The position numbers were made by a program, and so were the translations under genes. From Candidatus Electronema aureum (GTDB taxonomy: Bacteria; Desulfobacterota; Desulfobulbia; Desulfobulbales; Desulfobulbaceae), in NCBI GenBank assembly GCA_004284765.1, contig NQJD01000045.1:1-15844 (forward strand): a DNA stretch of 15,844 nucleotides, read 5' to 3'. The notes beneath the pieces were generated by a model that saw only the letters and a program-made list of their open reading frames with translations, was not told the DNA's origin and searched no databases. Numbering within the stretch: the stretch's first letter is position 1; each line of letters begins with the position of its first letter. Below, one piece after another: positions 1 through 15,844 of this stretch.

Positions 1-101
1 TAACCCAAGTTGTGACCTATAACTCTTGAAAAATCCATGCTTCCCCGCGTATGGTATACTTCTGCTGTCTGGCACGAATATAACCGCACACGGAGGAGAG
101 C

Positions 102-338: not shown

Positions 339-427
339 GTGATACGTTTTTCCTATTGTCAGGTATGGTTTGACCATACCAATGGTATGCTTCAAGCTAT
401 TGCTGGGTATGGTTCAGCTAGTCTGTC
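296..427. repeat. Phased array of GGTATG(C/G)TT motifs with 22-bp register, plus inverted copies
   Basis: GGTATG starts at 296, 318, 362, 384 and 406, giving spacings of 22, 44, 22 and 22 bp. The 340 slot is degenerate (GGTGATAC at 338). Two subtypes occur: GGTATGCTTCAA at 296 and 384, and GGTATGGTT at 318, 362 and 406. Inverted copies are GCATAC at 330-335 and ACCATACC at 373-380. These form the palindrome GGTATGGT-ttg-ACCATACC (362-380) and the inverted repeat GTATGCTTCAA (297-307) / TTGAAGCATAC (325-335). A related GTATGGTATAC lies at 49-59. Confidence 0.6.
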
Positions 428-472
428 GATGCGTTTTGCGTGTTCCGGGAGTGGTTCTGCGGCAAAGACAGC

Positions 473-1111: not shown

Positions 1112-1156
1112 CCTTCATATCCTTCTCAAACTGACCTCGAACACTTCCAAAACATC

Positions 1157-1264
1157 TTACGCCGCTTGGCGAGTCAGCTCCAGCGTTTCCCGGTCAATCT
1201 GCTGCAACGCCCGCTGGATGTGGTTGACTTCATTCTCCGCAAAAAGCGGCTCGCCGCATTGCGT
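1157..1264 (-). pseudogene. Start-less 35-codon C-terminal relic of an unidentified gene
   Basis: Minus-strand frame reads TGA|TQCGEPLFAENEVNHIQRALQQIDRETLELTRQAA|TAA. It is bounded upstream by an in-frame stop (1265-1267) and has no plausible start codon. Its composition is GC-rich and backbone-like, and it sits exactly between the adaptor stop codon (1276) and the AT-rich patch. Its identity is unknown. Confidence 0.3.
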
Positions 1265-1275
1265 TCAGACTTAAA

Positions 1276-2658
1276 TCACTTCGGCGGCTGATTAACTGGC
1301 GGAGCAGCTACCGCCTTTTCTCCAAACGGCGCAGCCTTCACATCAGCACCAGGCCGGAGCATCAGCAGGCCCTCGACAATCACCTTGTCGCCAGACGCAA
1401 GCCCCTTCGAGACTAACCACTTGTCGCCCAAGGCCCGCTCAAGGACGAGCAGTCGCATCTCAGCTTTGTTTTCGGCATTAACGAGCAAGGCAAAGGGATT
1501 GCCCTTAGAGTTGCGTGACACACCTTGCTGCGGCACCAGCACAGCCGCTTCTCGCTCGCCCTCTTTGATTGCTGTGCGGACAAACATACCCGGCAGCAGC
1601 ACACCATCAGGATTGGGGAACACCGCCCGCAGCGTAACCGAGCCAGTGCTTGGGTCAACGGTCACATCGCTGAACTGGAGCGTGCCTTCGAGCGGATACG
1701 CGGCACCGTCTTCCAGCATCAGGCTGACTTTGCTCTTGTCCGCCGCCGCTTGACCGCTTTTCCGCAACTGAAGTAGCTTGGCAGTTGACTGAGGCACATC
1801 CGCATAAATGGGATCAAGCTGCTGAATAACGGCCAGCGCAGCAGGCTGATAGGCAGTCACTACCGCGCCCTCGGTCACATTGCTTTTGCCGATGCGACCA
1901 GAGATCGGAGCCGTGACTTTGGTGTAACTCATGTTGATACGGGCGGTTTTCACTGCTGCTTCCGCCTGCTGAATCGTCGCCTGAGCAGCAGCAACCGCGC
2001 TGCGGCTGCTTTCCACCTGCGCCTCAGCTGCGGCTAATGTCGCCTCAGCCACAGCCACCTCAGTAGCGGCCTGATCACGTTGGACAGCAGAATTCACCTT
2101 GCTCTTGAACAGCTCCTCAGCGCGGTTGCTGTTGGTGCGGGCAAGGGTCAGCGTAGCCTGAAGCCGGGCTAAATCAGCAATACCAGCTTTCAGCGCAGCC
2201 TGTGCCCGATCAGCAGCCTTCTGCGCGGCAAGGTGACTGGCTGAGGCGTTGTCGAGCGCAGCTTGGAAGGAAGCAGGATCAATCTGATACAGCATATCAC
2301 CGGCCTTCACGTCTGCGCCTTCAGTAAACAACCGCTTCTGGATGATGCCGCTGACTTGAGGCCGAATCTCTGCCGTGCGGAAGGCAGCAGTGCGGCCCGG
2401 CAGCTCGGTAGTCAGTACCACCTTTTCTGCCTGCACCGTGACAAAGGAGACCTCTGGTATGGGTTTGCCGCCCGGAGGCCCTCCCGGTCCCCCGCTTGGA
2501 CCGCCTGCCTGCTTCGGGCCACCCCCGCTAACCAAAGCGACTAACTTGCCTGTCCAGCCTTGTTGACCGTCGCAGCCTGCACTGGCAAACAGCACAGCCA
2601 ACAGCGCAGTCCAGTGCAGCATTTTATATACAGTGGGTTGATTCATAACAAACTCCAA
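1276..2658 (-). CDS. Efflux RND-type periplasmic adaptor (membrane fusion protein, AcrA/MexA family) lipoprotein
   Basis: Signal peptide with lipobox (LLAVLFASAGC). A Gly/Pro-rich tether follows (GGGPKQAGGPSGGPGGPPGGKP). The biotinyl/lipoyl-like motifs (VKAGDMLYQIDP ... YTKVTAPISGRIG) flank an Ala-rich coiled-coil hairpin, followed by a beta-barrel/MP-proximal region. This is the typical HlyD_D23/MFP layout. It lies directly downstream of a TetR regulator. Confidence 0.9.
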   Translation of the reverse strand: MEFVMNQPTVYKMLHWTALLAVLFASAGCDGQQGWTGKLVALVSGGGPKQAGGPSGGPGGPPGGKPIPEVSFVTVQAEKVVLTTELPGRTAAFRTAEIRPQVSGIIQKRLFTEGADVKAGDMLYQIDPASFQAALDNASASHLAAQKAADRAQAALKAGIADLARLQATLTLARTNSNRAEELFKSKVNSAVQRDQAATEVAVAEATLAAAEAQVESSRSAVAAAQATIQQAEAAVKTARINMSYTKVTAPISGRIGKSNVTEGAVVTAYQPAALAVIQQLDPIYADVPQSTAKLLQLRKSGQAAADKSKVSLMLEDGAAYPLEGTLQFSDVTVDPSTGSVTLRAVFPNPDGVLLPGMFVRTAIKEGEREAAVLVPQQGVSRNSKGNPFALLVNAENKAEMRLLVLERALGDKWLVSKGLASGDKVIVEGLLMLRPGADVKAAPFGEKAVAAPPVNQPPK

Positions 2659-2676
2659 GGCACAAAGGAAGGCCGA

Positions 2677-3291
2677 TCAGTCCATCAGCCCGTGGAAGAA
2701 GACGTTGAGGATGATATCAGGAGATTCAGGATACGGATGCCGTCCTTCCAACCAGTGGAAAAGGAAGGCGTTGCAGAGACTGTCCAAGGCTAAGGCTACG
2801 TGATACGGCTCGGCAGTGCGGCGAAAGAGACCACTGTTCATGCCGTGAATAAAGACCGCTTCCAAGCGGCGCAGCACTAACTCGCAGCGTTCGCGTATCT
2901 CGCTGTCTAACCCGGCCTTGATGTTGAAACTCGCGCCCCGGTTCTCAGCAAAATACAGGCGGACGCAGGCGGCGTTGTCCATGAAGACCTGGCCTTTAGC
3001 TTGGACGTAGTTACGCAGTTGGGCAAGCTCGTCCTCGCCGGTTGACAAGGCGTTCATCAGAGCCTCGTGAAAGCGGTCTGCCTGCTCAGAGATCAGGGCC
3101 TTGTAGAGGTCTTCCTTGTTGCGAAAGAACTTATAGAGCGTGCCGACCGCAAACTCAGCCTTTTCAGCGATCTCCTGCATAGAGACGTTGTGATAGCCTT
3201 TTTCTGAGAACAGGGCAAGGGCCGCAGCCAGCATGTCGTGCCGCTGCCTGATTCTCTCCCTCTCCCGGCGCGGGAGGCTCAGTTCGTCCAT
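2677..3291 (-). CDS. TetR/AcrR-family transcriptional regulator
   Basis: N-terminal TetR helix-turn-helix (AALALFSEKGYHNVSMQEIAEKAEFAVGTLYKFFRNKEDLY) followed by a helical ligand-binding domain of about 140 aa. Its stop lies 18 bp upstream of the adaptor gene. Confidence 0.9.
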   Translation of the reverse strand: MDELSLPRRERERIRQRHDMLAAALALFSEKGYHNVSMQEIAEKAEFAVGTLYKFFRNKEDLYKALISEQADRFHEALMNALSTGEDELAQLRNYVQAKGQVFMDNAACVRLYFAENRGASFNIKAGLDSEIRERCELVLRRLEAVFIHGMNSGLFRRTAEPYHVALALDSLCNAFLFHWLEGRHPYPESPDIILNVFFHGLMD

Positions 3292-3355
3292 GTGTTGATA
3301 AGCAGTCTTGATCTGGTTAGTGATGCTGTCATGCAGAAGATGATACGCGGTTCAT

Positions 3356-3387
3356 ATTTTAAACTGAAGTATCTGCTTGTCAAGCAG
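3356..3387 (-). promoter_or_regulatory. Sigma70-like promoter with overlapping palindromic operator for the tetR-adaptor operon
   Basis: Minus strand reads TTGACA (3383-3378), 16 nt spacer, TAAAAT (3361-3356). The -35 lies inside a perfect 15-bp palindrome CTGCTTG-t-CAAGCAG (3373-3387). A 1-nt centre rules out a hairpin, so a dimeric-regulator (TetR-type) operator is more likely. Confidence 0.45.
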
Positions 3388-3390
3388 GAA

Positions 3391-3423
3391 AATAAAAAAT
3401 CCCCGCACTACACGCCGGGGATT
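3391..3423 (-). terminator. Rho-independent terminator after the HD-GYP regulator gene
   Basis: On the minus strand the stem AATCCCCG (3423-3416) pairs with CGGGGATT (3405-3398) around a 10-nt loop. TTTTTATT follows immediately. It lies 28 nt downstream of the stop at 3451. Confidence 0.7.
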
Positions 3424-3450
3424 ATCATAGTACCTACACAGTTCAGCAGA

Positions 3451-4539
3451 TCAGCACATCGCTTCATCCTTGTTTCGCTGGGCAATAGTTTCAAACTCCT
3501 TCTCTACTCGAATCAGGGCATCATAGACATCTGGGTCAAAATGACGGCTGCGCCCTTCTTCATGAATAATAATCTGCATAGTCTGCTCATGACTGAGAGC
3601 GGGTTTGTAGGCTCTTTTGGTACGCAGAGCATCATAGACATCAGCTATCGCCATGATCCGGCCTGCCAAGGGGATGCTACGTCCTGCTAATCCTCTGGGA
3701 TACCCACTGCCGTCAAACTTTTCGTGATGACTTCCCACCAAATCCTTGGCGCATTGGAGAAAGGTCATCGGCTCGCCCGCCATCTTGGTGAGCTTATCGA
3801 TGACTTCTTCGCCGTAGATGGCGTGCTTCTTCATGATTTCAAACTCATCCCGGTCCAGACGACCTTGTTTGAGCAAAATTACGTCCGGGATACCCACTTT
3901 GCCAATGTCGTGCAGCGGTGCGGTTTTGTACAGCAGAGTGATGTATTCTGGGGTAAGAATGTCGAGAAACTTGCCTGAGTGGAAGAGATTTTCCGCTAAC
4001 GAGCGGACAAAGGCCCGAGTGCGTTGGATGTGGCCACCGGTGTCTGTGTCGCGATGCTCGGCCAGCTCACCCATCGCCACAATAGTGATGTCTTTGAGCA
4101 GCACAGTCTCTCTGGTGCGGGCTTCCACCGTTTGCTCTAAATACATCTTGTAACGGTGCAGCTCCAGATGATTACGGACGCGAGAACGTAGCTCAACTCC
4201 GTGAAAGGGCTTGGTGATATAATCAACTCCACCCAGCTCGAAACCCTTAGCCACATCCTCTGGCTCTGATCGAGCAGTAAGGAAAATCACTGGGATGGAC
4301 TGTGTTGCTTGGATTTTACGAATTTCCTGCAAGGTCTCAAAGCCGTCCATGCCCGGCATCATCACATCTAAAAGCACCAAGTCAGGTGTGCGGCTGCGTA
4401 TCCGCTCTAAAGCCTGCTCGCCAGAGGTGGCATAGGCAAACTCCATGTCCAAGCTCTTCAGATGAGCAAGGGCAATCTGAATATTTTCCGGCACATCGTC
4501 AACAATAAAGACTAACGGCTTGGTTGCGCGACTTCTCAT
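3451..4539 (-). CDS. Response regulator with REC receiver and HD-GYP domain (RpfG-type c-di-GMP phosphodiesterase)
   Basis: REC motifs are present (VFIVDDVPEN ... DLVLLDVMMPGMDGFE ... VIFLTA ... KPF). The C-terminal HD-GYP domain has LHDIGKVGIPD and HHEKFDGSGYPRGL. The start overlaps the kinase stop by 1 nt (TAATG). Confidence 0.9.
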   Translation of the reverse strand: MRSRATKPLVFIVDDVPENIQIALAHLKSLDMEFAYATSGEQALERIRSRTPDLVLLDVMMPGMDGFETLQEIRKIQATQSIPVIFLTARSEPEDVAKGFELGGVDYITKPFHGVELRSRVRNHLELHRYKMYLEQTVEARTRETVLLKDITIVAMGELAEHRDTDTGGHIQRTRAFVRSLAENLFHSGKFLDILTPEYITLLYKTAPLHDIGKVGIPDVILLKQGRLDRDEFEIMKKHAIYGEEVIDKLTKMAGEPMTFLQCAKDLVGSHHEKFDGSGYPRGLAGRSIPLAGRIMAIADVYDALRTKRAYKPALSHEQTMQIIIHEEGRSRHFDPDVYDALIRVEKEFETIAQRNKDEAMC

Positions 4540-6407
4540 TATTTCTCCTCCGCAACACTGCGGAGTGCGGTCAGCACCTGCTCCACCCCCCTGATGTCTA
4601 TATCCAGCGCGAAACGTTTCATATCCTTCCCCATTGCAGTCAGCTCTGTTGTCCCGGTTTTTCGTCCACAGTCCTCCATGCTTCGACCCAAGGCAAAGGC
4701 ATCTTCCAGATTGCCGCTCATCTGGGCTTGAGCGTAGGCGGCTTGCAGCCCGCTGTCCCAGACCGCCCGAATTGGGCTGAGATTAGGCACAAGTAAAGAA
4801 GGTGAATGCCACGGATGTACTGTTTCCACTGCACTGTTTTGGTCGATCTGAATATATCGATCAACGACCCGCTGCAATTCTTGCAGATGAAAGGGCTTGG
4901 CGAGTAGATCATCAAAGAGCGGCGTGAGACTGTCTTTGTCCAACATGAAGCCAGTCATGGCCACAATAGGAATCTGGGCCGTGCGCTGGTCTTCTTTGAG
5001 CTGCTGGGCAAGATCACGACCATCGGCTCCAGCCAGATTCAAATCCATCAAAATCAAATCAGGCTGTTCAGAGAGGGCCAGCGCAAGGCACTCATCCGGG
5101 CCAGCGGCTTCCAACACCTTAATCGGCGAATTAGTAAAATAAATCTTAACCAAATGAGACATCTCCGGCATATCATCAACCACCAGCATGACCGGATTTG
5201 TCCCTTTTTCCCGCGCTGCTAATAGACCGCAGCTCTGCCCTGCAAAGCCGTCTTCTGGTCTGCTTCCTGCCTTGTCCGCAGCTTGCACCGGCATGATGAA
5301 GGTAAAGGCAGTGCCTTGGCCCAAGATGCTTTCTAAGCGGATACTGCCGCCCATCATGCGGGCCAGCCGAGCGCAGAGGGTCAGGCCCAAGCGGGTGCCG
5401 TCATCAATGCTGACCTGCACGTCCTGCTGCTCGAACAGCTCGATCAGCCCCTGTTGCTCGCCTATCGACATACCGATGCCGGTATCCGCCACTTGGAAAG
5501 ACAGCTCCCAGCAGTCAGGCCCGGCCTCAGTCCCGGTCACGGTCAAGCAGACTTTACCCTTTTCGGTGAACTTAACGGCATTGCTAATTAAATTGATCAG
5601 CACTTGGCGGCAATGATCCGCATCCATGACGTACATCTCTGGCAAGCCCGGCTCGACAGCACAGAGGAATTCCAGCTTCTTGGCTCGGAGCTGGTCGGCA
5701 AACATGTCTGCGGCTTGCTCAATCACAGCATGAAGATTGGCAGCAGATTTCAGTACCTTGACATTGCCAGTCTCTAACTTAGACAGCTCCATCACATCAT
5801 TGATAATGGAGACTAAGGCAGTACCGTTCTTGCGGATCGTGCTGACAAAACGCTGCTGCTGCTCATTGAGGCCGGACTCAGCCAGAATTTCCGCATAGCC
5901 GATGATCGCATTCATTGGCGTGCGGATGGCGTGATTAATATTGGCGATGAATTTGCGTTTCAGGCGGTTGGCTGCCATAAGCTGCTGCTCGGTGCGGCGC
6001 AAGGCAGCCTCTTGACAGCCAGTCAATTTTTGGAGATTACGACCAATACAGACAACCAAGCTGCTGCCTTGTCTCTCTATTTGCACCAAAGTGAACTCAA
6101 CAAACAGAGCTTTGCCGTTTTTATCGGTCAGTCGGGCATGGAAGGTGCGGGAGTCGTCCCCGCGCAGTTCGGCAAGTTGCTCTTTAAGACCTGCTAAATA
6201 CGGTTCTAAGATTTCAGCGGGCTGGTTTTCAATCTCATCACTGCTCAGACCGACTGTATCAAGAAAAGTGCGGTTGGCTGCTCTGATTATGCCGCTACGG
6301 TCGAGAAGAAGCGCACAGGTGGAGAGTGCTGCAAAAATGTTCAGCACTGCGTCCCAGTCATGAAAGCTCTGTTCAGTTACACCGCTACGTTGGCTGTCTT
6401 CGCTCAT
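4539..6407 (-). CDS. Cytoplasmic hybrid sensor histidine kinase (PAS - HisKA - HATPase_c - REC - C-terminal helical tail)
   Basis: No obvious TM segment. There is an N-terminal PAS-like region. H-box: FIANINHAIRTPMNAIIGYAEIL. N-box: LINLISNAVKFT. G-boxes: VADTGIGM and GTRLGLTLC. Receiver: VMLVVDDMPE ... LILMDLNLAGADG ... IVAMTG ... KPF. Its ATG overlaps the aroK-like stop (ATGA). Confidence 0.9.
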   Translation of the reverse strand: MSEDSQRSGVTEQSFHDWDAVLNIFAALSTCALLLDRSGIIRAANRTFLDTVGLSSDEIENQPAEILEPYLAGLKEQLAELRGDDSRTFHARLTDKNGKALFVEFTLVQIERQGSSLVVCIGRNLQKLTGCQEAALRRTEQQLMAANRLKRKFIANINHAIRTPMNAIIGYAEILAESGLNEQQQRFVSTIRKNGTALVSIINDVMELSKLETGNVKVLKSAANLHAVIEQAADMFADQLRAKKLEFLCAVEPGLPEMYVMDADHCRQVLINLISNAVKFTEKGKVCLTVTGTEAGPDCWELSFQVADTGIGMSIGEQQGLIELFEQQDVQVSIDDGTRLGLTLCARLARMMGGSIRLESILGQGTAFTFIMPVQAADKAGSRPEDGFAGQSCGLLAAREKGTNPVMLVVDDMPEMSHLVKIYFTNSPIKVLEAAGPDECLALALSEQPDLILMDLNLAGADGRDLAQQLKEDQRTAQIPIVAMTGFMLDKDSLTPLFDDLLAKPFHLQELQRVVDRYIQIDQNSAVETVHPWHSPSLLVPNLSPIRAVWDSGLQAAYAQAQMSGNLEDAFALGRSMEDCGRKTGTTELTAMGKDMKRFALDIDIRGVEQVLTALRSVAEEK

Positions 6408-6916
6408 GAACGCAGCCGGGCAACAATTTCAGCGGCAATATCCGCGTTGGTTCTGCCTCGCACGGAAATTTCCAAGTCCGCAGCTTGGCGGTACTGCGGT
6501 AGCCGCTCGACAAACAAAGCCTCAGCTCGTGCTATATCCTGAAACAAAGGACGCTTTTTCATCTTTTGCTCGGCGTTGGGATGACTGCGTATGGCCTCCA
6601 GAATGCTATCTAAATCGGAATGGAGATAGATCACCTGCCCCAGCCGCTGGAGATTGTTAACCTTGAAGAAACCGCCGCCCGCTGAGACAATAGTGTGGCT
6701 CACCTGTCCCTCTAACCAGGTAGCGCACTGCTGCTCTAACTGCCGGAAATGGGCTTCGCCTTGTTCAGCAAAAATATCCCGAATTCTCATTTTGACCATG
6801 CTTTCAATCAGGTCATCGGTATCAATCGCGAAGCGGCCTGTCAGCGCGGCCAAAGCGCGGGCTGTCCTGCCTTTACCCACACCCATAAAGCCGATCAGTA
6901 TGATGTTGTCAGCCAT
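6404..6916 (-). CDS. aroK: Shikimate kinase-like protein (AroK family) with atypical P-loop
   Basis: By eye it aligns along its whole length with E. coli AroK. Shared motifs are NIILIGFMGVGKGRTARALA (P-loop region), IDTDDLIE (shikimate-binding DxD), SAGGG and KKRPLF. The P-loop reads GVGKGR instead of GxGKST. Confidence 0.8.
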   Translation of the reverse strand: MADNIILIGFMGVGKGRTARALAALTGRFAIDTDDLIESMVKMRIRDIFAEQGEAHFRQLEQQCATWLEGQVSHTIVSAGGGFFKVNNLQRLGQVIYLHSDLDSILEAIRSHPNAEQKMKKRPLFQDIARAEALFVERLPQYRQAADLEISVRGRTNADIAAEIVARLRS

Positions 6917-7172
6917 GATTTTCTATGTTCCCGCCCGACTGCCCGTCCGAGCCTAAATAATAATTATTGAACGTGGATTCTTCAAATTGTAAAACCTAAA
7001 AGGCAACCTGTAAAATGAATTTTCAGCAATGGCACTTGCGCTCCTTGTCTGTCTTTCGCGTAGTGAACTGATTTTCTCGGAAAAACTGCGTACTTTCACT
7101 GATCTGCCCCGACGTAATCATTCGAGAGCAATAGAGATGATCTTCGACAAAAACTTGAACCAAGCGTCAAGA

Positions 7173-9641
7173 CTATTTAACGCTTTTGCACTTCAGTGTT
7201 TCCCCATCGGTCACACAGCTCACCGTACCCTGTTCTCTGGTGATCTGCACTGGTATCTTTTTTTCCTGCCAGAGCGCACGATTTGCCGGAGCAGGAAAAT
7301 ATTGCTGCCTGCTGCCTCTTCCAGCGGAAACCACGATCAGCTTTGGCTGCACCGCCGCAAGAAAGTCTGGGCCAGTTGATGTGCGGCTGCCGTGATGTCC
7401 TGCTAACAGCACGTCAGCCTTCAGCTCTGCACCTTGACGCAGCAGGATGTCCTCGCTTTGCTTGCCGATATCACCGGGCAGGAGAAAGGCACGCCTGCCA
7501 TGCTGATACCGCAGCACTAAGGCGGCATCGTTGACCTCTTCAGAACGCACAGGCAGACCAGTCATGCCTACAACCGTCAGTGCGAAATCTTTGCCTTGTG
7601 CCAACCTGCGTCCGCGTTCAGGAATCAGCACCTGCATCCCCTGCTGCGCCGCCTGATCCAGTATCTGCTGATACTTGCCTTCTCGATGCGCATCGCCGTT
7701 AATCCACAGTAGTCTTGGTCTGAAATGGGCCAAGATGAAATCCATGCCACTGAAATGATCGTTGTGCGGATGGCTGATCACTGCCTGATCGAGCCGCCAG
7801 ATGCGCTGGCTCCACAAGTAGGGGGCGATAACTTGCTCACCGATGTTGAGGCCGCTTTCCTTACTGCCGCTGCCGCCATCAACCAGAATGCGTGAACCGT
7901 CAGGGAGCTGGAGGAAGACTGATGAACCTTGGCCGACATCAAGGACGGCTACCTTACTTGTTCCCGATTGCGCCGGAAACCATATCCCCCAGGTGAAATG
8001 TAGGGTCAGCAGCGCGGCACCAGCTAAGGCCATCTTGCGGAACTTGAGGCTCCAGAGAAGAAGAAGCAGGCCATAGAAAAGTATTTCCGCAACGGTTGGA
8101 CTGATCGTCCAGATTGAAACCCAAGGCAGCGCACTGGCAATTGCAGTACCGTGTAGACCTGCCCAGATACCAACACTGCCGATTTTGAGCAACAGCACAG
8201 CGACCTGCGGTTTCACAAAGATGTAGGGAATAGCCGCTAATCCCCAGGGCAAAGCCCAGAAGCAGAGCAGCGGCTCAAGCAGTAGGTTCGTCAGGGGGCC
8301 GACTATGGAAAAGCGGTGGAAATGGAGCAGCACCAGTGGCAGCGTACCTACGGTCGCGGCGATGGAAGCCAGCAGTGCCGAGCGGAGATAAACAACTCTT
8401 TTGCTGCCATCAGTAGTTGTGGGCGGCATGATCTGCGGCAGGAAGAGAACTAGAGCTGCCACCGCACTGAACGAGAGCTGAAACGAGGCAGTGAACAAGG
8501 CGAGCGGATGTAAGATCAGCACCAGCAGAGCCGCTGCCGCGAGCAGATGCAGCATATCGTGCCGGCGGCGGAGAATCACTGCGCCCAGCAAGGCAGCAGC
8601 CATGATTAGCGAGCGCAGCACCGGCGTGTTCATCCCGGCAATCAGGCTATAGAGAAGCAAGAGAGGCAGGGTGCCGAGCAAGGCCAGCGTCGGTATGTGC
8701 GTGTGCAAAAGCAGCCAGTGCGACCGCCGGAGCAGCTTATTGAGCAGCGCACTAACCATCAGGGCGAGCAGGCTGATGTGCAGACCAGAGATAGAGAGAA
8801 TATGCGTCGTGCCAGTGGCCTTGAACTGTTCCTGAATCTGCGGAGATATCGCTGCTTGGCTGCCGATCAGCAGGGCCTGATAGACACCAGCGACCTCTGG
8901 GCTGAGGTGCTGACGGATAAACAAGCCTGCCTCCTGCCGCACCTGTTCGGGAAGAGAGCGGAGCCTGTGCAGTCCGCTCTTAGTCTGATCGTTGAGGACA
9001 AGCATATCCTCTCGCCCACCCACCCAGCCGCTCACGTAGATACCTTTTGCCGCTAAATGACCCTGATAGTCAAAGCTGCCCGGCGTGTTGAAGCTGCCTG
9101 CTGGCCTTGCCTTGGCTAAGATCATCAGCGACATGCCGGGTCGCAGCCCATCTGCCCTACCCTGCATGGTCAGCCGCACCCTGCCGCGTACACTCTGCCA
9201 CCTGTGCCGCAGTAGCACCTCCTCTACTTCCAGCTCAAAACGGGAGATGATTTCCTCACCCTGCTCGGTCTGCACTGCGCTTTTTTCAATCATACTGGCC
9301 AAGGTGCCGACCAGCGTTACCTGCGTCTGCTCGTGAATCAGCGCAGCGAGCTGTCCGCCTGTTTTTGGCAACGCAAGCTGCTGGAGAAGATGCAGGTATC
9401 CAGCCAGAAAGAAAAGCGGCAAGCTGAGGAATAAGGCAAGCTGCTGGCGGCGGCGCGAGAAGATCAGGGTGGCGAGGAAGAGCAGGGCAAAGGCAATGCC
9501 TGCTGCGTATTCAGGTAAGGGATGTAAACGAGCGGTGCTGATACCGATGATGAAGCAGACCGTTACTGGCAGGAGGATGTTACGGTTGCACCAGCGGAGG
9601 GCGGCTGCCGGAAAGGGCATTTTTTGTTGGTGTTTATCCAA
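7173..9641 (-). CDS. comEC: DNA internalization-related competence protein ComEC/Rec2 (three-domain form)
   Basis: An 822-aa protein. The N-terminal TM plus OB-like region (DUF4131-type) is followed by a polytopic Competence domain with many hydrophobic helices. The C-terminus is a metallo-beta-lactamase fold with VISHPHNDHFSG (HxHxDH) and downstream GHHGS. Confidence 0.9.
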   Translation of the reverse strand: MDKHQQKMPFPAAALRWCNRNILLPVTVCFIIGISTARLHPLPEYAAGIAFALLFLATLIFSRRRQQLALFLSLPLFFLAGYLHLLQQLALPKTGGQLAALIHEQTQVTLVGTLASMIEKSAVQTEQGEEIISRFELEVEEVLLRHRWQSVRGRVRLTMQGRADGLRPGMSLMILAKARPAGSFNTPGSFDYQGHLAAKGIYVSGWVGGREDMLVLNDQTKSGLHRLRSLPEQVRQEAGLFIRQHLSPEVAGVYQALLIGSQAAISPQIQEQFKATGTTHILSISGLHISLLALMVSALLNKLLRRSHWLLLHTHIPTLALLGTLPLLLLYSLIAGMNTPVLRSLIMAAALLGAVILRRRHDMLHLLAAAALLVLILHPLALFTASFQLSFSAVAALVLFLPQIMPPTTTDGSKRVVYLRSALLASIAATVGTLPLVLLHFHRFSIVGPLTNLLLEPLLCFWALPWGLAAIPYIFVKPQVAVLLLKIGSVGIWAGLHGTAIASALPWVSIWTISPTVAEILFYGLLLLLWSLKFRKMALAGAALLTLHFTWGIWFPAQSGTSKVAVLDVGQGSSVFLQLPDGSRILVDGGSGSKESGLNIGEQVIAPYLWSQRIWRLDQAVISHPHNDHFSGMDFILAHFRPRLLWINGDAHREGKYQQILDQAAQQGMQVLIPERGRRLAQGKDFALTVVGMTGLPVRSEEVNDAALVLRYQHGRRAFLLPGDIGKQSEDILLRQGAELKADVLLAGHHGSRTSTGPDFLAAVQPKLIVVSAGRGSRQQYFPAPANRALWQEKKIPVQITREQGTVSCVTDGETLKCKSVK

Positions 9642-9712
9642 GCGAACCTGTTTAGATAGTAACTCTGCCTTTCCCGCCGAGCGTAATTTTTGTTAGCCTG
9701 CGCAGCCTATCT

Positions 9713-9740
9713 TTGTTATGATAAACTATCATACTATATT
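9713..9740 (+). promoter_or_regulatory. Sigma70-like promoter with embedded 17-bp palindrome upstream of the two-gene cassette
   Basis: TTGTTA (9713-9718), 16 nt spacer, TATATT (9735-9740). The spacer and -35 edge carry the perfect palindrome TATGATA-aac-TATCATA (9717-9733). This is the position expected for an autoregulatory operator in type II TA operons. The ATG at 9762 lies 22 nt downstream of the -10. Confidence 0.4.
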
Positions 9741-9761
9741 GTCGTGAGACCAAGTAAGAAT

Positions 9762-10535
9762 ATGAATACCAATCGAGTGATTGATTTAATTAGATATATC
9801 TTGGAAGAGGCCCGCCAGAATGAAGAATGGTCTTTCCGAGAACTTGGGCCTATACACCTCATTAAGTATGTGTACCTTGCTGATCTCTATTATGCTTCAC
9901 AAAACGATGGAAAGACATTCACAGACCTTTCTTGGCAATTTTATCATTTCGGCCCGTGGAATCCTTCCTTGTACAGTGAACTCCCTAATTTTATTAGGGA
10001 GATAGGTGCAAACATCAGAACATTTGAAAGTCGCTATACAAAAGATGGAGTGCGATATTCCTTAAATGATGACTATCACCACGATTCGCCTTGCAGCATA
10101 CCTCTTGCCATCAGTTCATTGCTGCGCCGCGATATAAGGAATTATGGTTCTGCAACTAACGATTTGCTGCATTATGTATATACTACTCCGCCTATGACAA
10201 ATGCTGTGCCAGGAGACTATCTTAATTTTGATCAGATTATTTTTATGCACAAGGAATCTGTTGCTACAGAAAATTTTGACAATTTAACTGACAGAGAGAA
10301 AAAGAAGAGAAAGCAACGCGTGTTGGATATTAGAAAAAAAATCGCAAAACAACGTGAAGAAAGTAAAAAAAAGCGGGTACGTCCAGCACCAAGATATGAT
10401 GAAGTATTTTTTAATGGAACCATGGAGATGAATCGAGATATTGAACTTCAAGAAATTGAAAACCATAAAGGTTTGTTGCAGGTTAACCAAAACACTTGGA
10501 TAGGAAACTGGAGAAGGAGTCATGAGTTACCCTGA
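9762..10535 (+). CDS. Panacea/DUF4065 (SocA-like) domain protein, putative antitoxin component, with Lys/Arg-rich C-terminal extension
   Basis: The ORF track opens at a TTG (9690), but the in-frame ATG at 9762 follows the predicted promoter. The N-terminal ~110 aa (VIDLIRYILEEA...FRELGPIHLIKYVYLADLYYASQNDGKTFTDLSWQFYHFGPWNPSLYSELPNFI) match, from memory, the DUF4065/Panacea pattern (L.K..L.KLLYLAD......G.P.T...Y.A...GPV...LY..L). The C-terminal half is highly basic (REKKKRKQRVLDIRKKIAKQREESKKKRVRP). GC is about 32-40%. Confidence 0.65.
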   Translation: MNTNRVIDLIRYILEEARQNEEWSFRELGPIHLIKYVYLADLYYASQNDGKTFTDLSWQFYHFGPWNPSLYSELPNFIREIGANIRTFESRYTKDGVRYSLNDDYHHDSPCSIPLAISSLLRRDIRNYGSATNDLLHYVYTTPPMTNAVPGDYLNFDQIIFMHKESVATENFDNLTDREKKKRKQRVLDIRKKIAKQREESKKKRVRPAPRYDEVFFNGTMEMNRDIELQEIENHKGLLQVNQNTWIGNWRRSHELP

Positions 10536-11241
10536 CGGCTCCTTGCAAAAATATTTTGATGATCATAGTTGGTGGGAGAAAACAACAGAAAAAAATCCAT
10601 TGATAGGGCGGTTGATATGGGCATTTATACCTCATGTTGATGTTATCCCTAAGTCTTTAATTTCAACTGGTCGCGCTGAAGACGAAGCATCTAATCATAG
10701 TAAAGCCAGTTACGAAATTGCAGACCTTCGTATAAAAAGTCATTTTCAAAAAAATACTCTTCCGGCGGCTATATTGCCTTACTATCCAGATGAATGCTAC
10801 ACTGTTCATCGGTCAAAAAAAAGACCGGCATTAATTATAGCGGATGGTGGTGTTGAAGTACCAAAACAGTTGCGATCAAGCATGAAACCAAGCTGGCAGA
10901 CAAATCCAACCATGCTTGCTGCGCCATATTATGGCGTGTTAAAAAACGGAACCAGCAAATGGTATGAACCCTTCGTCGATCGGATCAAAAAATGTGAATA
11001 TCCTCAATACCTATGGGATACTTTACCCGTATCATCATCTGAGACTAAATCTTCTATTTTAAGATTTGATCACATACAGCCAATAGGAAAACATGCCGAT
11101 TCTTACGAACTTACTGATTACACTCTGAAAGAAGCGGTGGTAGATTTTTTTCTCAAAGAGTGGCTCTGCTGGCTGACTACCGGCGAAATGGATGTAGACA
11201 GCATTCTTTATGATATACGAAGAGACTTCCTCAGTCTTTGA
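10522..11241 (+). CDS. Hypothetical protein, putative toxin partner; by-eye resemblance to a MazF/PemK (CcdB/MazF-fold) core with large insertions
   Basis: Strong SD (AAGGAG at 10514-10519) 2-3 nt... more precisely ending 2 nt before the ATG at 10522, which overlaps the upstream gene by 14 nt. Four segments line up in order with E. coli MazF (recalled sequence). GRLIWAFIPHV matches GDLIWVDFDPT. SKKRPALIIADG matches AGHRPAVVLSPF. MLAAPYYG matches LCVPCTTQ. SILRFDHIQPIG matches GVALADQVKSIA. An insert of about 50 aa follows the first strand, and a helical tail of about 40 aa ends the protein. The functional call is low confidence; the coding call is good. Confidence 0.6.
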   Translation: MSYPDGSLQKYFDDHSWWEKTTEKNPLIGRLIWAFIPHVDVIPKSLISTGRAEDEASNHSKASYEIADLRIKSHFQKNTLPAAILPYYPDECYTVHRSKKRPALIIADGGVEVPKQLRSSMKPSWQTNPTMLAAPYYGVLKNGTSKWYEPFVDRIKKCEYPQYLWDTLPVSSSETKSSILRFDHIQPIGKHADSYELTDYTLKEAVVDFFLKEWLCWLTTGEMDVDSILYDIRRDFLSL

Positions 11242-11245
11242 CACT

Positions 11246-12550
11246 TTATTTTTTCTTTCCCATCAATTCCCTCACCACCTGCACATGCCGCGCCACGCTG
11301 CCGCGCTGCTGCTCGACCAGTGTCTGCGCTGCTTGGGACATGGCCGCATGAAGCGCAGTATCAGCCAAGATACGAGAGGCAATCTCGGCAAGATTCTCTG
11401 CGGTGACGATGTGCGCTCCGCCGCAACGAAGTAAATCGCTGGCAATTTCAGCGAAATCATCCATGTGCGGACCAAAGAGGACAGGTACGCCCTGCACCGC
11501 TGCTTCGATGGGATTGTGGCCACCTTCAGCAACCATGCTACCGCCGATGAAGGCAAGCCGGGCCAAGCGATAGCAGGAGGCTAATTCGCCGATAGTATCT
11601 AAGATCAGCACGTTGCTGTTAGTTGCCGTGCCGCTGCTGCGGAGATCAGCAGTAAGGCCAAACTGATGAGCCAGCTTGACTAATTCGCTGCCTCGCTCGA
11701 TCTTGCGTGGGGCGATGATCAATTGCAGGGGTAGGTTATCAGGGCAGACACGCAGGTATGCCCCTACCTTTTTGAACGCAGCAAAGATCAGTTCCTCCTC
11801 GCCGGGATGGGTAGAGCCACAGACCCAGACATGACCCGTGTCGTCGTAGGGGCGATCCTTGCGGTCGCCCGATACACTGCCAAGGCGAATACAAGATTCG
11901 CCCCTCCCTACTTCGTATTTCAGATTGCCCAAGCAGATGACCCGCTCTGCCGGGTTGCCCAGTTCAATCATCAGGCGGCGGTCGTGCTCGGTCTGCATGG
12001 AAAGCAGGTCGAAGCAGCGGAACATTGGCTGGAAAAAGAAGGCAAAGCGGCGGTAGGCGGCAAATGATTTTGCCGAAATGCGCCCATTGACCAGCATAAC
12101 CGGAACCTGCCGCTTATGGAGCTGCTGCAACCAGTTCGGCCAGAAGTCGGTCTCAACCAAGATGAAGAGATTCGGCTGGATTGCGTCAAGGTATCGACGA
12201 ACAGCGCAAGTAATGTCCAGCGGACTGTAGAGAACGAGATCGGCGTGGGGTTTGATCAGTTTTTCTGCCAGCACTCTGCCGCTGCGGGTGGCCGCCGTGA
12301 AGACTATTCGCGCTGGGCAAATGTTCTCGCGGATTGCTTTGACCAAAGGCAGGGCTGAGGTGACTTCCCCGACAGACAGAGCGTGCAGCCAGATGACTGG
12401 CCCCGACTTGGCAGTAAATAAGATATCCCTGATATGTTGGGTCTGTAGGCCCAGCCGTTCTAAGGTGCGGCCTCGGTATTTGGTACGGAAGAGGACAAGG
12501 GGCAGCAGCGGTAGGAGGGCGGCGACGAGCAGATTGTAGAGGAAGATCAT
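11246..12550 (-). CDS. waaA: 3-deoxy-D-manno-octulosonic acid (Kdo) transferase
   Basis: Hallmark WaaA/KdtA motifs are VIWLHALSVGEV, LVETDFWPNW, LVNGRISAKSF and IGGSMVAEGGHNPIEAA, preceded by an N-terminal TM anchor. The start is set at M19 of the track ORF (12550, MIFLYNLLVAALLPLLPL...). The 12604 ATG would abut the tRNA and would translate through its terminator hairpin. Confidence 0.9.
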   Translation of the reverse strand: MIFLYNLLVAALLPLLPLVLFRTKYRGRTLERLGLQTQHIRDILFTAKSGPVIWLHALSVGEVTSALPLVKAIRENICPARIVFTAATRSGRVLAEKLIKPHADLVLYSPLDITCAVRRYLDAIQPNLFILVETDFWPNWLQQLHKRQVPVMLVNGRISAKSFAAYRRFAFFFQPMFRCFDLLSMQTEHDRRLMIELGNPAERVICLGNLKYEVGRGESCIRLGSVSGDRKDRPYDDTGHVWVCGSTHPGEEELIFAAFKKVGAYLRVCPDNLPLQLIIAPRKIERGSELVKLAHQFGLTADLRSSGTATNSNVLILDTIGELASCYRLARLAFIGGSMVAEGGHNPIEAAVQGVPVLFGPHMDDFAEIASDLLRCGGAHIVTAENLAEIASRILADTALHAAMSQAAQTLVEQQRGSVARHVQVVRELMGKKK

Positions 12551-12560
12551 CTCAACCAAC

Positions 12561-12597
12561 AAAAAACGGTTACGCTTGCTTGAAGCGTAACCGTTTC
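12561..12597 (-). terminator. Rho-independent terminator downstream of tRNA-Thr
   Basis: Perfect 14-bp stem AAACGGTTACGCTT (12564-12577) / AAGCGTAACCGTTT (12583-12596) with a 5-nt loop. On the minus strand it runs into TTTTTT (complement of 12561-12566). It begins 8 nt after the tRNA 3' end. Confidence 0.7.
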
Positions 12598-12604
12598 GTA
12601 TCAC

Positions 12605-12680
<76 letters not shown>

Positions 12681-12735
12681 GTGTTTTACATCGCAGGGCA
12701 GCGCAGTCTTCGCGCTGACTCACTCTGAACTTTAT

Positions 12736-12764
12736 TATGTAGCAGGTTCGTGCTATACTGTCAA
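12736..12764 (-). promoter_or_regulatory. Sigma70-like promoter for tRNA-Thr
   Basis: Minus strand reads TTGACA (12764-12759), 17 nt spacer, TACATA (12741-12736; alternatively CATAAT two nt further on). It lies about 55 nt upstream of the tRNA 5' end. Confidence 0.5.
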
Positions 12765-12768
12765 GTTT

Positions 12769-14256
12769 ATGAAGATGAAATTTATGCTGCTGACAGCTCT
12801 TTTGTTGCTGCCCTTAGCTGCTTGCCGCGAAGACCAGAAGCCTGCCGTTCCTGCGCCTCCTCCTACAGAACCGCAGAAGGTAGCAGCGCAGACTCTCCCG
12901 TTGCCACCCGGCTGCCGGGGCTGTCATACCGACATTCAGTTAGATGATCAGCATGATATTGCCTGCACAGATTGTCATGTAGGCAATAACGAGACCAATG
13001 ATAAGGAGCTTGCGCACAAGGGACTGATTGCCAAACCTGCTGCGATAGAGAATATGACTGCTGTTTGCGGCAGGTGTCATGCCAAGCAAATAGAAGGTTG
13101 TGCGCAGTCCACACATTTCACCCTGAAGAACGAAGTTAATCAGCTCCGCAGTCACTTTGGCCTTAAACCTGTCAATACGCTGACGGATATACCAGAGCGC
13201 AGCGGCCCGCCACAGGATAAAGAGCAGTTGGTTGATGACTTGCTCCGTCGCCGCTGCTTGCGTTGCCATGTGCAAACATCGGGTGATAGGTATCCCTCGG
13301 TGCAGCGAGGTACTGGTTGCGCGGCCTGTCATCTGCGTACAACCGAGGGCAAGTTAGAAAGTCACGCCTTCAGTATTCCCGGTGAGCGGCAGTGCCTGAG
13401 CTGCCATTATGGCAACCGGGTAGGCAGTGATTTCGCAGGCCTATATGAGCATGACTACGGCAGTGATTTCCGCTCGCCACAGACTGCGGCTACTCCGTAT
13501 CTCCGGCCTTACGGGGTGGAGACGCACGACCTCGCACAGGATATCCACCGGCAGCGCGGCCTCAGCTGTTTAGACTGTCACAGCGGCGCAGAGCTATCTG
13601 GTAAACAAGCAGCTGTGCACTGCGCGGACTGTCATGCCCCTGCATCAGGCAAGGTGCCGCCTCTAAAGCATGTCCGTGCAGAAGACGGCCAGCTGATTCT
13701 GACCGCAAGAACCAGTGGGAAGGAGCATCGGATTCCCAAGCTCCAGCATCCTGCCCATGCTCAATACAGCAGCAAGGTTGATTGCCAAGTTTGTCATGCC
13801 CAGTGGAGCTTCAATGATCAAGGCACTCACCTACTGCTCAGTTATTCTAACGAGAATAAGCCGTGGCGGTCGTTAGCCGTGCAGGGAAGTGCAGAGGTTG
13901 AAGCGTTTCTCACCGAAGAAGATGAGCCAGCTATGACCGACACGCTGACCGGGGAGAAGAAACCGGGCATCTGGCTGCAAGGCTACAGTTTGCGTCGCTG
14001 GGAGGACATGATCATTCGCCAAGACAAAGACGGCATGATTAAAGTTTTCCGTCCGCTGCTTGATCTACGGCTCTCTGCTGCTGATGCCAATGAACAAGTG
14101 ATTGCTGATTTAGACAACATCGCGGGAAATGGCGATGGTCTGCTTCCCTATACCCCACACACCACCGGCCCAGCAGGGCTGTTTTATGAGCAGCGTTTTC
14201 TTCATCTGCTGGAGAAGCAGCAAGCAGCCTCCTTGCCAGCGAGTCAGCCAAGGTAA
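12769..14256 (+). CDS. Multiheme c-type cytochrome lipoprotein (nine CXXCH motifs) with heme-free C-terminal domain
   Basis: Signal peptide with lipobox (LLLLPLAAC), then a Pro-rich tether. The nine CXXCH sites are CRGCH, CTDCH, CGRCH, CLRCH, CAACH, CLSCH, CLDCH, CADCH and CQVCH, all within roughly aa 48-345. The last ~150 aa have no heme motif. Confidence 0.9.
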   Translation: MKMKFMLLTALLLLPLAACREDQKPAVPAPPPTEPQKVAAQTLPLPPGCRGCHTDIQLDDQHDIACTDCHVGNNETNDKELAHKGLIAKPAAIENMTAVCGRCHAKQIEGCAQSTHFTLKNEVNQLRSHFGLKPVNTLTDIPERSGPPQDKEQLVDDLLRRRCLRCHVQTSGDRYPSVQRGTGCAACHLRTTEGKLESHAFSIPGERQCLSCHYGNRVGSDFAGLYEHDYGSDFRSPQTAATPYLRPYGVETHDLAQDIHRQRGLSCLDCHSGAELSGKQAAVHCADCHAPASGKVPPLKHVRAEDGQLILTARTSGKEHRIPKLQHPAHAQYSSKVDCQVCHAQWSFNDQGTHLLLSYSNENKPWRSLAVQGSAEVEAFLTEEDEPAMTDTLTGEKKPGIWLQGYSLRRWEDMIIRQDKDGMIKVFRPLLDLRLSAADANEQVIADLDNIAGNGDGLLPYTPHTTGPAGLFYEQRFLHLLEKQQAASLPASQPR

Positions 14257-14262
14257 GTACGC

Positions 14263-14646
14263 ATGGACTTCAAGCCAGGTTTTAGAATATCAAGAACAGA
14301 TAGTGCCGTGCTGGTGGTCGGCTTTCTCTGTGCTGCCTTCTGTTGGAGAATCTCTGCGCTTGCCAGCCTCCTGCTGCTCTTTGTCCTTGCCAACTTCTTT
14401 GCCTTCTGCAATGTCCTCAGGATGTCGCGTCCCTCAGAGCTGACTTGGGCAGCCGGATTTCTGCTCCTGTCCTGTTCGGCACTACGTACAGGCACACCAA
14501 GCTGGCTGCTTGTCTTGGCTATTGCATCAACGGCAACGATTGGCTTGGCCTTGCTTGAAATGCGCAAGCCAAGCTATCATGGGGTGTTTTGGCAACGCCT
14601 TAACCCGGAGTTGCCCGCTTGGTTCCAGCAGCACAGCACTGATTGA
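14263..14646 (+). CDS. Small integral membrane protein (about 4 TM segments), function unknown
   Basis: The ATG lies 6 nt after the cytochrome stop. Hydrophobic stretches include AVLVVGFLCAAFCW, LASLLLLFVLANFFAFCNVL, LTWAAGFLLLSCSAL and SWLLVLAIASTATIGLALL. The overlapping minus-strand ORF (14244-14567) is basic and low-complexity, as expected for an antisense shadow. Confidence 0.6.
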   Translation: MDFKPGFRISRTDSAVLVVGFLCAAFCWRISALASLLLLFVLANFFAFCNVLRMSRPSELTWAAGFLLLSCSALRTGTPSWLLVLAIASTATIGLALLEMRKPSYHGVFWQRLNPELPAWFQQHSTD

Positions 14647-14733
14647 CGAGAAGCCTTTTGCACGGTAAATATATCTGCAACTCTACCCATTAACCTTTTC
14701 CGTTTTTTTATAGCACAACAGGACAACGAGATT

Positions 14734-15717
14734 ATGAAAGTGCTTGTCACTGGCGGCACCGGTTTCACCGGCAAAGCCTTAGTTAAACGATTAGTCGATA
14801 CAGGCCACGAGGTAGTCAGCTTGGATTATCAGGAAGGGCTGAAGACCGACGAAATTCGCTCTTGGGGAGTGAAGGTAGTAATCGGCAGCGTCACTGATCG
14901 AGCTGCGGTGGAACGCTGTATGGAAGGTGTGGAAGTGGTACAGCATTTGGCTGCTGCTTTCCGCGAGTTAGACGTACCCAACAGCTATTATGATGAAGTA
15001 AACGTCAGCGGTACCAAGATCGTACTGGAAGTAGCCTTTGCCCATAAGGTAAAGAAGTTTGTTTATTGCTCCACCTGCGGTGTGCACGGCAATGTGGATC
15101 ATCCGCCTGCTGATGAGAACGCGCCTATCCAGCCGGGTGATTATTATCAGCAGACCAAATACAATGCAGAGCCGATTGTTCACGAATATTGTGCCAAGGG
15201 TATGGATGCAGTCATCCTTCGGCCTGCCGCTATCTATGGCCCCGGTGACCCAGAGCGCTTCCAGATGATCTTTCGGCGAGTGAGCAAGGGCGTGTTCCCG
15301 ATGTTTGGTGACGGTAAAACCTTCTATCATCCGCTCTACATCGACAACCTGATTGATGCCTTTATGCTGGCGATGGAGCCGGGCAAGGGGCGCGGCCAAG
15401 CCTATTTGATCGCTGACGAGGACTATGTGAGCATTGAAACCTTGGTGCAGAAAACTGCCAAGGCTCTGGGCGTAGAGGTGAAGATTCCCCATTATCCGAT
15501 TTTGCCGCTGATGATTGCCGGGCATATCTGCGAGAAAGTCTGCAAGCCTTTCAAGATCGCGCCGCCGATCTTCCCACGCCGCGTTGATTGGTTCCGACAG
15601 AATCGGGCCTTCAATATCAATAAGGCCAAGCGCGACCTTGGCTATCAGCCTAAGATTGGTTTAGACGAAGGGCTGAAGCGTACTGGTGCGTGGTATCGAC
15701 AGGAAGGATATATATAA
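14734..15717 (+). CDS. NAD-dependent epimerase/dehydratase (extended SDR family)
   Basis: N-terminal Rossmann motif VLVTGGTGFTGKAL. Catalytic YxxxK is present (YQQTK), with an upstream STCGVHG serine region. The length (327 aa) and overall pattern are typical of nucleotide-sugar epimerases/dehydratases. The substrate cannot be inferred. Confidence 0.85.
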   Translation: MKVLVTGGTGFTGKALVKRLVDTGHEVVSLDYQEGLKTDEIRSWGVKVVIGSVTDRAAVERCMEGVEVVQHLAAAFRELDVPNSYYDEVNVSGTKIVLEVAFAHKVKKFVYCSTCGVHGNVDHPPADENAPIQPGDYYQQTKYNAEPIVHEYCAKGMDAVILRPAAIYGPGDPERFQMIFRRVSKGVFPMFGDGKTFYHPLYIDNLIDAFMLAMEPGKGRGQAYLIADEDYVSIETLVQKTAKALGVEVKIPHYPILPLMIAGHICEKVCKPFKIAPPIFPRRVDWFRQNRAFNINKAKRDLGYQPKIGLDEGLKRTGAWYRQEGYI

Positions 15718-15844
15718 TACCTAATGTGCAACTCTTTTAAACTTGATTAGGCAGCAATCAAGCCATCCAAGTCAAGTGGAGGGCGGTTATAGACCAAATT
15801 AAGGAAGACACAAACAGTGTGCGCCAAAATTTTACGAATCAGAC

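Follow-up and report, generated by a model that had tools for sequence, protein, structure and literature searches.

Two overlapping genes make up the entire content of an island of low guanine-plus-cytosine (GC) content in the cable bacterium Candidatus (Ca.) Electronema aureum, and the question that they raise is what kind of protein the second of them encodes. They lie on the forward strand of a 15,844-nucleotide (nt) stretch of DNA (contig NQJD01000045.1 of assembly GCA_004284765.1, positions 1 to 15,844; herein the window, to which all nucleotide positions refer). The first gene (9762..10535) encodes a 257-residue PanA-like putative antitoxin, and the second (10522..11241) encodes a 239-residue PanT-like putative toxin with what appears to be a MazF/PemK-like core carrying insertions. 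An earlier note on this DNA had proposed such an expanded core, paired with a Panacea antitoxin. We consider it very probable that the second gene encodes the toxin of a two-gene module, and probable that the pair is a horizontally acquired PanA-PanT type II module, in which a MazF/PemK/Kid-type endoribonuclease toxin with an SH3-like barrel is neutralized by binding of the antitoxin. What is new here is the family, an unnamed set of MazF-fold toxins that belong to Panacea modules and are double the usual size; a conserved insertion of 60 residues separates their strands β1 and β2.

The toxin was modeled with AlphaFold2 on an alignment of 32 sequences; the model has a predicted local distance difference test (pLDDT) score of 87.5 and a predicted template modeling (pTM) score of 0.83, and no segment falls below a pLDDT of 50. 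When it was compared with 350,542 chains of the Protein Data Bank (PDB) using Foldseek, ranks 1 through 5 were all MazF: 5hjz_A, which is MazF of Mycobacterium tuberculosis, and 5co7_D, 5cqy_B, 5ckd_B, and 5co7_B, which are MazF of Escherichia coli (probability 0.87 to 0.99; template modeling score [TM-score] of 0.52 to 0.58 normalized to MazF). The sole confident match in a viral structure library is a 122-residue protein labeled "endoribonuclease" (probability 0.97, TM-score 0.62). The predicted elements follow the same order as in MazF, from β1 through the C-terminal helix, with the extra parts between them and at both ends. The model therefore supports assignment of the toxin to the CcdB/MazF superfamily fold, an SH3-like β-barrel with a C-terminal helix. 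A CcdB-like reading was also considered and rejected, as no CcdB chain is found among the 50 best Foldseek matches. The earlier note had left its proposal to be decided by structure prediction or a profile search, and both spoke for it: the five best structural matches are MazF, and a profile freed of its inserts aligns with MazF/PemK over 90 columns.

That profile comparison was made at two levels. HHalign of the full-length family against a MazF/PemK profile gives a weak signal (probability 13 to 16%, P ∼0.002), in which KRPALI is paired with HRPAVVL, LAAPYYG with LCVPCTT, and SILRFDHIQPIG with GVALADQVKSIA. A core profile, for which insertions were removed according to the secondary structure of the model (residues 24 through 41, 92 through 110, 127 through 141, and 160 through 222 kept), aligns with residues 7 through 100 of MazF over the 90 columns with a probability of 89.8% (E = 1.8e-6, score 38.8). 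The register is identical in the full-length and core alignments; the claim of the earlier note that four segments of the toxin stand in the order of the conserved MazF strands thus holds. The MazF/PemK profile includes six diverse sequences (Kid, ChpBK, EndoA, Staphylococcus aureus MazF, MazF9, and MazF6); in the PDB, a profile of these six matches EndoA, Kid, MazF6, and MazF9 over their full length (E = 1e-42 to 1e-50), and the six are thus genuine members of the family.

HHalign's analytic P-values are unreliable for such short, low-diversity profiles. Since a reversed MazF profile reached a score of 24.9 against the core profile with P = 0.0008, we did not rely on these values and used empirical controls instead. 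Column-shuffled MazF profiles (60 in all) scored at most 22.6, and 80 random ordered four-segment "cores" scored at most 34.8, the best of them being those that by chance included true segments; the antitoxin alignment, used as a negative control, scored 13.7. The similarity of the insert-free core to MazF/PemK exceeds all of these controls and appears to be more than chance.

How the additional residues are distributed can be read from the model and the alignments together. The open reading frame (ORF) 10522 through 11241 and every peptide quoted from it in the earlier note are present in the order given there: GRLIWAFIPHV (residues 29 through 39; 10606-10638), SKKRPALIIADG (residues 98 through 109; 10813-10848), MLAAPYYG (residues 131 through 138; 10912-10935), and SILRFDHIQPIG (residues 178 through 189; 11053-11088), all on the forward strand, together with the pieces it called an insert (residues 48 through 76), an extra segment (residues 146 through 166), and a tail (residues 209 through 236). 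The chain begins with an N-terminal extension (residues 1 through 28; 10522..10605; pLDDT 86 to 94) that was absent from the earlier description and has no MazF counterpart; within it Q9 is invariant and W17 and W18 are nearly so. Strand β1, GRLIWAFIP (residues 29 through 37, modeled at 30 through 37; 10606..10632), opens with the invariant G29 and is aligned by core-profile HHalign with G10 through D18 of MazF (GDLIWVDFD). The conserved insertion follows (residues 38 through 97; 10633..10812), placed by both model and alignment, and takes the place of a MazF β1-β2 loop of about ten residues; it contains predicted strands at residues 44 through 50, 63 through 68, and 93 through 95 and the near-invariant R51, H59, P81, A83, and E91.

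Beyond the insertion, HHalign places strand β2, SKKRPALIIA (residues 98 through 107; 10813..10842), and strand β3, TMLAAPYYG (residues 130 through 138; 10909..10935), with P135 on P50 of MazF; the modeled β2-β3 loop between them (residues 108 through 129) is longer than in MazF. A second insertion, left unaligned by HHalign, separates β3 from β4 (residues 139 through 159; 10936..10998) and contains a predicted helix at residues 149 through 156 (FVDRIKKC). Strands β4 through β7 (residues 160 through 202; 10999..11127) are modeled at residues 163 through 166, 178 through 181, 186 through 189, and 195 through 202; YPQYLWD of the toxin is aligned with YPFEVVL in strand β4 of MazF. Two C-terminal helices complete the model (residues 204 through 220 and 228 through 238; 11131..11238), and W217 in the first is near-invariant. 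Judging from the order of secondary-structure elements, helix 204-220 would occupy the position of the MazF C-terminal helix and helix 228-238 would be extra.

As modeled, then, the toxin is one MazF core with five additions and not a duplicated unit. A tandem duplication (pseudo-dimer) was considered as the source of the doubled length and ruled out on the single-core strand order and on two Foldseek alignments that extend over ∼200 columns. Its predicted structure and its near-invariant R51, H59, and E91 mark the 38-97 insertion as a conserved subdomain and not as an acidic spacer. The earlier note had given an acidic/polar insert of about 50 residues after strand 1: the insert stands, its size is about 60 residues (38 through 97), and its predicted strands and near-invariant residues do not fit a mere acidic loop. 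The extra segment proposed there is extra only in part, since its YPQYLWD aligns with β4 of MazF, and of the helical tail only helix 228-238 is an addition, helix 204-220 having the position of the MazF C-terminal helix. The statement that the protein is about twice the length of MazF was correct (239 against ∼110 residues).

Conservation was assessed in an alignment of 61 sequences with identities down to 29%. Q9, G29, R101, P135, and P169 are invariant; W17, W18, L31, R51, H59, P81, A83, E91, K99, P102, A134, P161, S178, R181, D183, L202, and W217 are at least 90% conserved; and H38, like H59, is conserved in the family. In E. coli MazF, Arg29 acts as general acid/base and Thr52 stabilizes the transition state, and in Kid, Arg73 and His17 act as acids and Asp75 as base (PMC8887465, PMC11394972). 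In the alignments, the invariant R101 of the toxin is paired with Arg29 of the E. coli protein (Arg25 in Bacillus subtilis), R181 and D183 are paired with the Arg73 and Asp75 of Kid (SILRFDHIQPIG against GVVRCDQPRTID of Kid), and G10, P30, P50, and P59 of MazF align with G29, P102, P135, and P161. We infer that the 239-residue protein is toxic and has ribonuclease (RNase) activity.

Two sets of results weigh against this reading. The first concerns the resemblance itself and bears on the alternative that it is spurious, reflecting how common small β-barrels are or an artefact of the model or of the trimming, so that the toxin would have a new fold; we consider this improbable. No library profile matches the toxin: Pfam (E ≤ 10), NCBIfam, PADLOC, and PHROGs were all empty, none of 32 toxin homologues matches PF02452 (PemK_toxin) at E ≤ 1, and searches of PDB sequences with the toxin (phmmer) and with the family profile returned only noise; pairwise BLASTP of the toxin and E. 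coli MazF was not significant (E = 6.5). With plain sequence searches empty, the four-segment match was therefore beyond verification by ordinary searches. The toxin lies outside the narrow MazF/PemK family (PF02452), as it has neither the profile match nor the compact single domain of ∼100 to 135 residues; MazF homologues have 98 to 136 residues. The Foldseek E-values of the top five matches are modest (0.02 to 0.11) and not significant on their own, and the root-mean-square deviations (RMSDs) are high, 5.5 to 6.4 Å for three shorter alignments (∼120 columns) and ∼10 Å for two longer ones (∼200 columns), as expected because half of the query has no MazF counterpart.

The low full-length HHalign probability and the poor calibration exposed by the reversed profile point the same way. 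The core-profile signal, moreover, depends on which inserts were removed by choice from the model, and it comes from the diverse members of the MazF/PemK profile, which score 36.1 alone; against a shallow profile of close E. coli-like MazF sequences only, the core scores 21.3, within the null range. As for the partner, the predicted antitoxin model (pLDDT 81.9) has no significant fold match in the PDB by Foldseek, with weak winged-helix-like matches only, and its Panacea identity is therefore without structural support. A spurious resemblance would, on the other hand, have to account for independent lines that converge on MazF and on the same register (the top five PDB chains and the MazF-like endoribonuclease of the viral library), for a core profile that scores above 60 shuffles and 80 random cores, for MazF G10, R29, P30, P50, and P59 all falling on the invariant or near-invariant G29, R101, P102, P135, and P161, and for secondary-structure elements that follow the MazF order all the way from β1 to the C-terminal helix.

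The second set concerns the chemistry. The position of MazF Thr52 is occupied by Y137 (the 32 closer sequences all have tyrosine there, as do 80% of the 61), and the β1-β2 loop that bears Glu24 in MazF and His17 in Kid is wholly replaced by the insertion, whose near-invariant R51, H59, and E91 could form a different site. The CcdB/MazF superfamily includes toxins that are not RNases, such as CcdB, a DNA gyrase poison. The toxin might thus have the superfamily fold and act on another target (for example DNA gyrase), or bind nucleic acid without cleaving it, with the activity carried by the insertion. That this is so seems to us quite unlikely: CcdB is missing from the 50 best Foldseek matches and the top five are MazF RNases; the position of the catalytic arginine of MazF is invariant and the Arg and Asp positions of Kid are conserved; and both validated MazF-like toxins that are paired with Panacea antitoxins inhibit translation (PMC8832971).

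A related possibility keeps the fold and changes the site. By analogy, the 38-97 insertion occupies the region in which MazF closes over RNA and in which antitoxins compete. Canonical MazF is an obligate dimer, and its RNA groove and β1-β2 loops are shared between the subunits. The insertion (R51, H59, and E91) and the N-terminal extension (Q9, W17, and W18) might together reconstruct the MazF-fold substrate site, with contacts made within a single chain, giving a monomeric nuclease or one that acts on structured RNA (a tRNA or rRNA loop); the C-terminal module of the antitoxin would then bind a new surface and not the MazE groove. We regard this as a speculative proposal, and an unlikely one.

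The evidence for the partner comes mainly from the Panacea profile. SocA_Panacea (PF13274) matches the window antitoxin with E = 9e-5 and 23.8 bits, under the 25.7-bit Pfam cut-off; 34 of 48 antitoxin homologues match it at E ≤ 0.01 (best E = 5.4e-7), and a precomputed PF13274 match is present in 14 of the 120 antitoxin homologues among the matches listed. One source names the antitoxin homologue of Desulfurivibrio alkaliphilus "Antitoxin SocA-like Panacea domain-containing". These profile matches identify the product of the upstream gene as a Panacea-domain protein.

Alignment and model divide the antitoxin into a conserved, Panacea-like N-terminal domain (residues ∼1 through 160), a poorly conserved linker of low model confidence (residues 161 through 176), a long Lys/Arg-rich helix, DREKKKRKQRVLDIRKKIAKQREESKK (residues 177 through 203; 10290-10370, forward strand), and a conserved C-terminal module that includes PRYDEVFF and the invariant W246 and R251 (residues 207 through 257). 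Across the family the charge of the helix is conserved and its sequence is not; it could bind nucleic acid or serve as a spacer. The C-terminal module is the likely toxin-binding part. The start of the antitoxin was set at the ATG at 9762 because family homologues begin there in the alignment. The mechanically defined ORF begins with a TTG at 9690 (281 residues) and the gene call in Ca. Electronema sp. VV has 276 residues; judged by that alignment, the N termini annotated for this antitoxin in databases may be overextended.

The pairing of the two genes is strictly conserved. In a comparison of 88 loci using tblastn, an antitoxin homologue lies immediately upstream of the toxin in 85, and the remaining three are cut by contig ends; no other conserved small ORF was found beside the pair in the same 88 loci. 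In the window, the antitoxin and toxin reading frames overlap by 14 nt, and a strong putative ribosome-binding site, GGAGAAGGAG, lies just 5′ of the toxin start codon.

The family itself is sizeable. A word-indexed search found 37 full-length toxin relatives (38 to 88% identity), of which those that were named are "hypothetical protein" entries of cable bacteria (Ca. Electronema and Ca. Electrothrix). When representatives at 50% identity were searched exhaustively, 334 clusters came up at E ≤ 0.001, and almost all of the complete members have 230 to 250 residues; the median is 236 residues among 150 listed representatives. Two representatives, P0181 (370 residues) and P0044 (294 residues), are far above the usual length of 235 to 250 residues, and P0181 matches only residues 86 through 181 of the toxin (55% identity); such overlong representatives could be fusions, frameshifts, or gene-call errors. 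A scan with the 32-sequence alignment, using one genome per species, gave 133 loci, mostly in Desulfobacterota, Thermoanaerobaculia and other Acidobacteriota, Binatia, Geobacteraceae, Methylococcales, Sulfuricaulis, and Colwellia. Viral contigs yielded just three toxin relatives, and a tblastn search for the toxin in plasmid and phage collections found nothing.

The low-GC island (9650..11245) has 37 to 44% GC against 53 to 61% in its flanks. It is bounded by comEC (7173-9641, reverse strand) on one side and by a 3-deoxy-D-manno-octulosonic acid (Kdo) transferase gene (11246-12604, reverse strand) on the other. Ahead of the antitoxin gene lies a putative promoter/operator of the module (9694..9740, forward strand), in which a near-palindrome, TAGCCTGCGCAGCCTA (9694-9709), stands just 5′ of a promoter-like site, TTGTTA-16 nt-TATATT (9713-9740). 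Ca. Electronema sp. VV keeps both at its orthologous locus, with a few substitutions. The assignment is tentative because promoter-like sites in the region (six found against 4.6 expected) are not above chance. The near-palindrome is a candidate autoregulatory operator, though the antitoxin has no recognized DNA-binding domain.

Outside the island, the Kdo transferase gene has a tRNA-Thr gene (anticodon CGT; 12605-12680, reverse strand) immediately upstream of it, ∼1.4 kb from the island. A 495-residue ORF (12769-14256, forward strand) has a signal-peptide-like N terminus, nine CxxCH heme-binding motifs, and a Cytochrome_C7 match; it is a multiheme cytochrome, and cable bacteria supply the nearest relatives of the toxin. 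In Ca. Electronema sp. VV a MutY-like gene adjoins the Kdo transferase gene, where the window has the cytochrome.

The genes that neighbor the module vary from lineage to lineage. Ca. Electronema sp. VV has it in the same slot between comEC and the Kdo transferase gene, and Ca. Electrothrix has it in a different one. In D. alkaliphilus (CP001940.1; locus L087, positions 1440-6789) the orthologous pair, of 262 and 241 residues, is flanked by a Transposase_mut gene on one side and, on the other, by a series of genes that match HTH_17, BrxB, and BrxC/PglY; judged by these matches, the surroundings look like a bacteriophage exclusion (BREX) defense island. One further copy lies ∼4 kb downstream of a restriction-enzyme gene (RE_XamI). 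Such neighbors invite the view that the pair is a phage-defense (abortive infection) system, with the Panacea protein as sensor and the MazF-like protein released upon infection, rather than a classical addiction or stress module; many toxin-antitoxin modules, Panacea-linked ones included, are reported to function in defense (Ernits et al. 2023, PMC10440598). We think it very unlikely: both here and in Ca. Electronema sp. VV, housekeeping genes (comEC and the Kdo transferase gene) flank the module and no defense genes lie nearby, PADLOC gave no match, and relatives in viral contigs number only three. The question is one of biological role, and phage defense would be compatible with the RNase mechanism that we favor.

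What the analysis shows is the gene pair with its strict conservation, the similarity in predicted fold and in profile, and the alignment of the catalytic positions; the RNase chemistry, the toxicity, the mode of binding, and any role in phage defense or addiction are inferred. The genes at 9762-10535 and 10522-11241 would form a type II PanA-PanT module acquired by horizontal transfer, and the 239-residue protein would most likely be a ribosome-independent endoribonuclease. R101, at the position of MazF Arg29, would be its key catalytic residue, possibly helped by R181 and D183 at the positions of Kid Arg73 and Asp75. The 38-97 subdomain probably sets substrate specificity, because it replaces the MazF loop that closes over RNA. 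The Panacea protein would neutralize the toxin by binding it directly, and its conserved C-terminal module is probably what makes the contact.

The family of 334 clusters is named in no annotation library, and it spans Desulfobacterota (including cable bacteria), Acidobacteriota, Binatia, and several Gammaproteobacteria. It suggests that the MazF scaffold can be enlarged to twice its size, and that the enlargement can include a conserved subdomain at the very loop by which RNA access and antitoxin binding are controlled. Earlier surveys probably missed this branch to a large extent, because they used the Pfam Panacea cut-off and most of its antitoxins score just below it. For toxin-antitoxin biology the result is an incremental extension and not a new principle, as Panacea/MazF-like pairs have already been validated.

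Among known systems, CcdB shares the SH3-like barrel superfamily and is likewise the toxin of a type II module, whereas the conserved Arg positions of the present toxin match the RNase members, CcdB is absent from its 50 best structural matches, and the partner of CcdB is CcdA, not a Panacea protein. With MazF, PemK (Kid), and EndoA (PF02452) the toxin shares the predicted barrel, the order of elements, and the C-terminal helix, as well as the Arg at the start of β2, the Gly before β1, and the Pro equivalents of P30, P50, and P59; with Kid it shares the Arg-x-Asp of β5 (Arg73/Asp75). It differs from them in its length (239 against ∼110 residues), in the lack of a PF02452 match, and in having a 60-residue subdomain for the β1-β2 loop, an N-terminal extension, a β3-β4 helix, an extra C-terminal helix, and Tyr in place of Thr52. 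Unlike in MazEF and PemIK, the partner is a 257-residue Panacea-like protein and not a MazE/PemI antitoxin of the AbrB/SpoVT type. The β1-β2 loop is a length-variable element in M. tuberculosis MazF-mt1, MazF-mt3, and MazF-mt9 also, in which "long" loops are disordered or interlocked between subunits and affect antitoxin binding (PMC11394972). Those extensions are short and the loops far shorter than the present element, which has ∼60 residues with predicted structure and with Arg, His, and Glu at near-invariant positions.

The comparison extends to known PanA-PanT modules. Panacea antitoxins neutralize toxins of many folds (Kurata et al. 2022, PMC8832971), and MazF/PemK is among the commonest predicted toxin folds of the wider network (Ernits et al. 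2023, PMC10440598). Two validated PanT toxins, from Pseudomonas moraviensis (cluster T6, WP_083201923.1) and Bifidobacterium ruminantium (cluster T25, WP_026646888.1), resemble EndoA/PemK/MazF by HHpred and inhibit translation; they are said to lack conserved-domain matches, yet the supplementary table lists PemK/MazF for T25 (PMC8832971). Because two such pairs were validated there, the pairing of a Panacea antitoxin with a MazF-like toxin is not new: of the suggestion in the earlier note of an unusual MazF-fold variant with a Panacea antitoxin in place of MazE/PemI, the fold and the partner (34 of 48 homologues matching PF13274) stand, and the pairing is less unusual than was supposed there (PMC8832971). 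The ends of the P. moraviensis toxin, MPGNIL and IRQNNF, known from the cloning primers and compared by termini only, occur in no family protein that was fetched. The family was not found by organism name (Desulfurivibrio, Methylomicrobium, and others) in the parts of the supplements of Kurata et al. 2022 and Ernits et al. 2023 that were available to us. As far as could be tested from the T6 termini and organism names, the family appears to differ from the sequence families of T6 and T25. It resembles these modules in its antitoxin-then-toxin order with overlapping genes, in a Panacea antitoxin without an N-terminal DNA-binding domain, and in a toxin that is missed by conserved-domain searches and becomes recognizable as EndoA/PemK/MazF-like only via remote homology.

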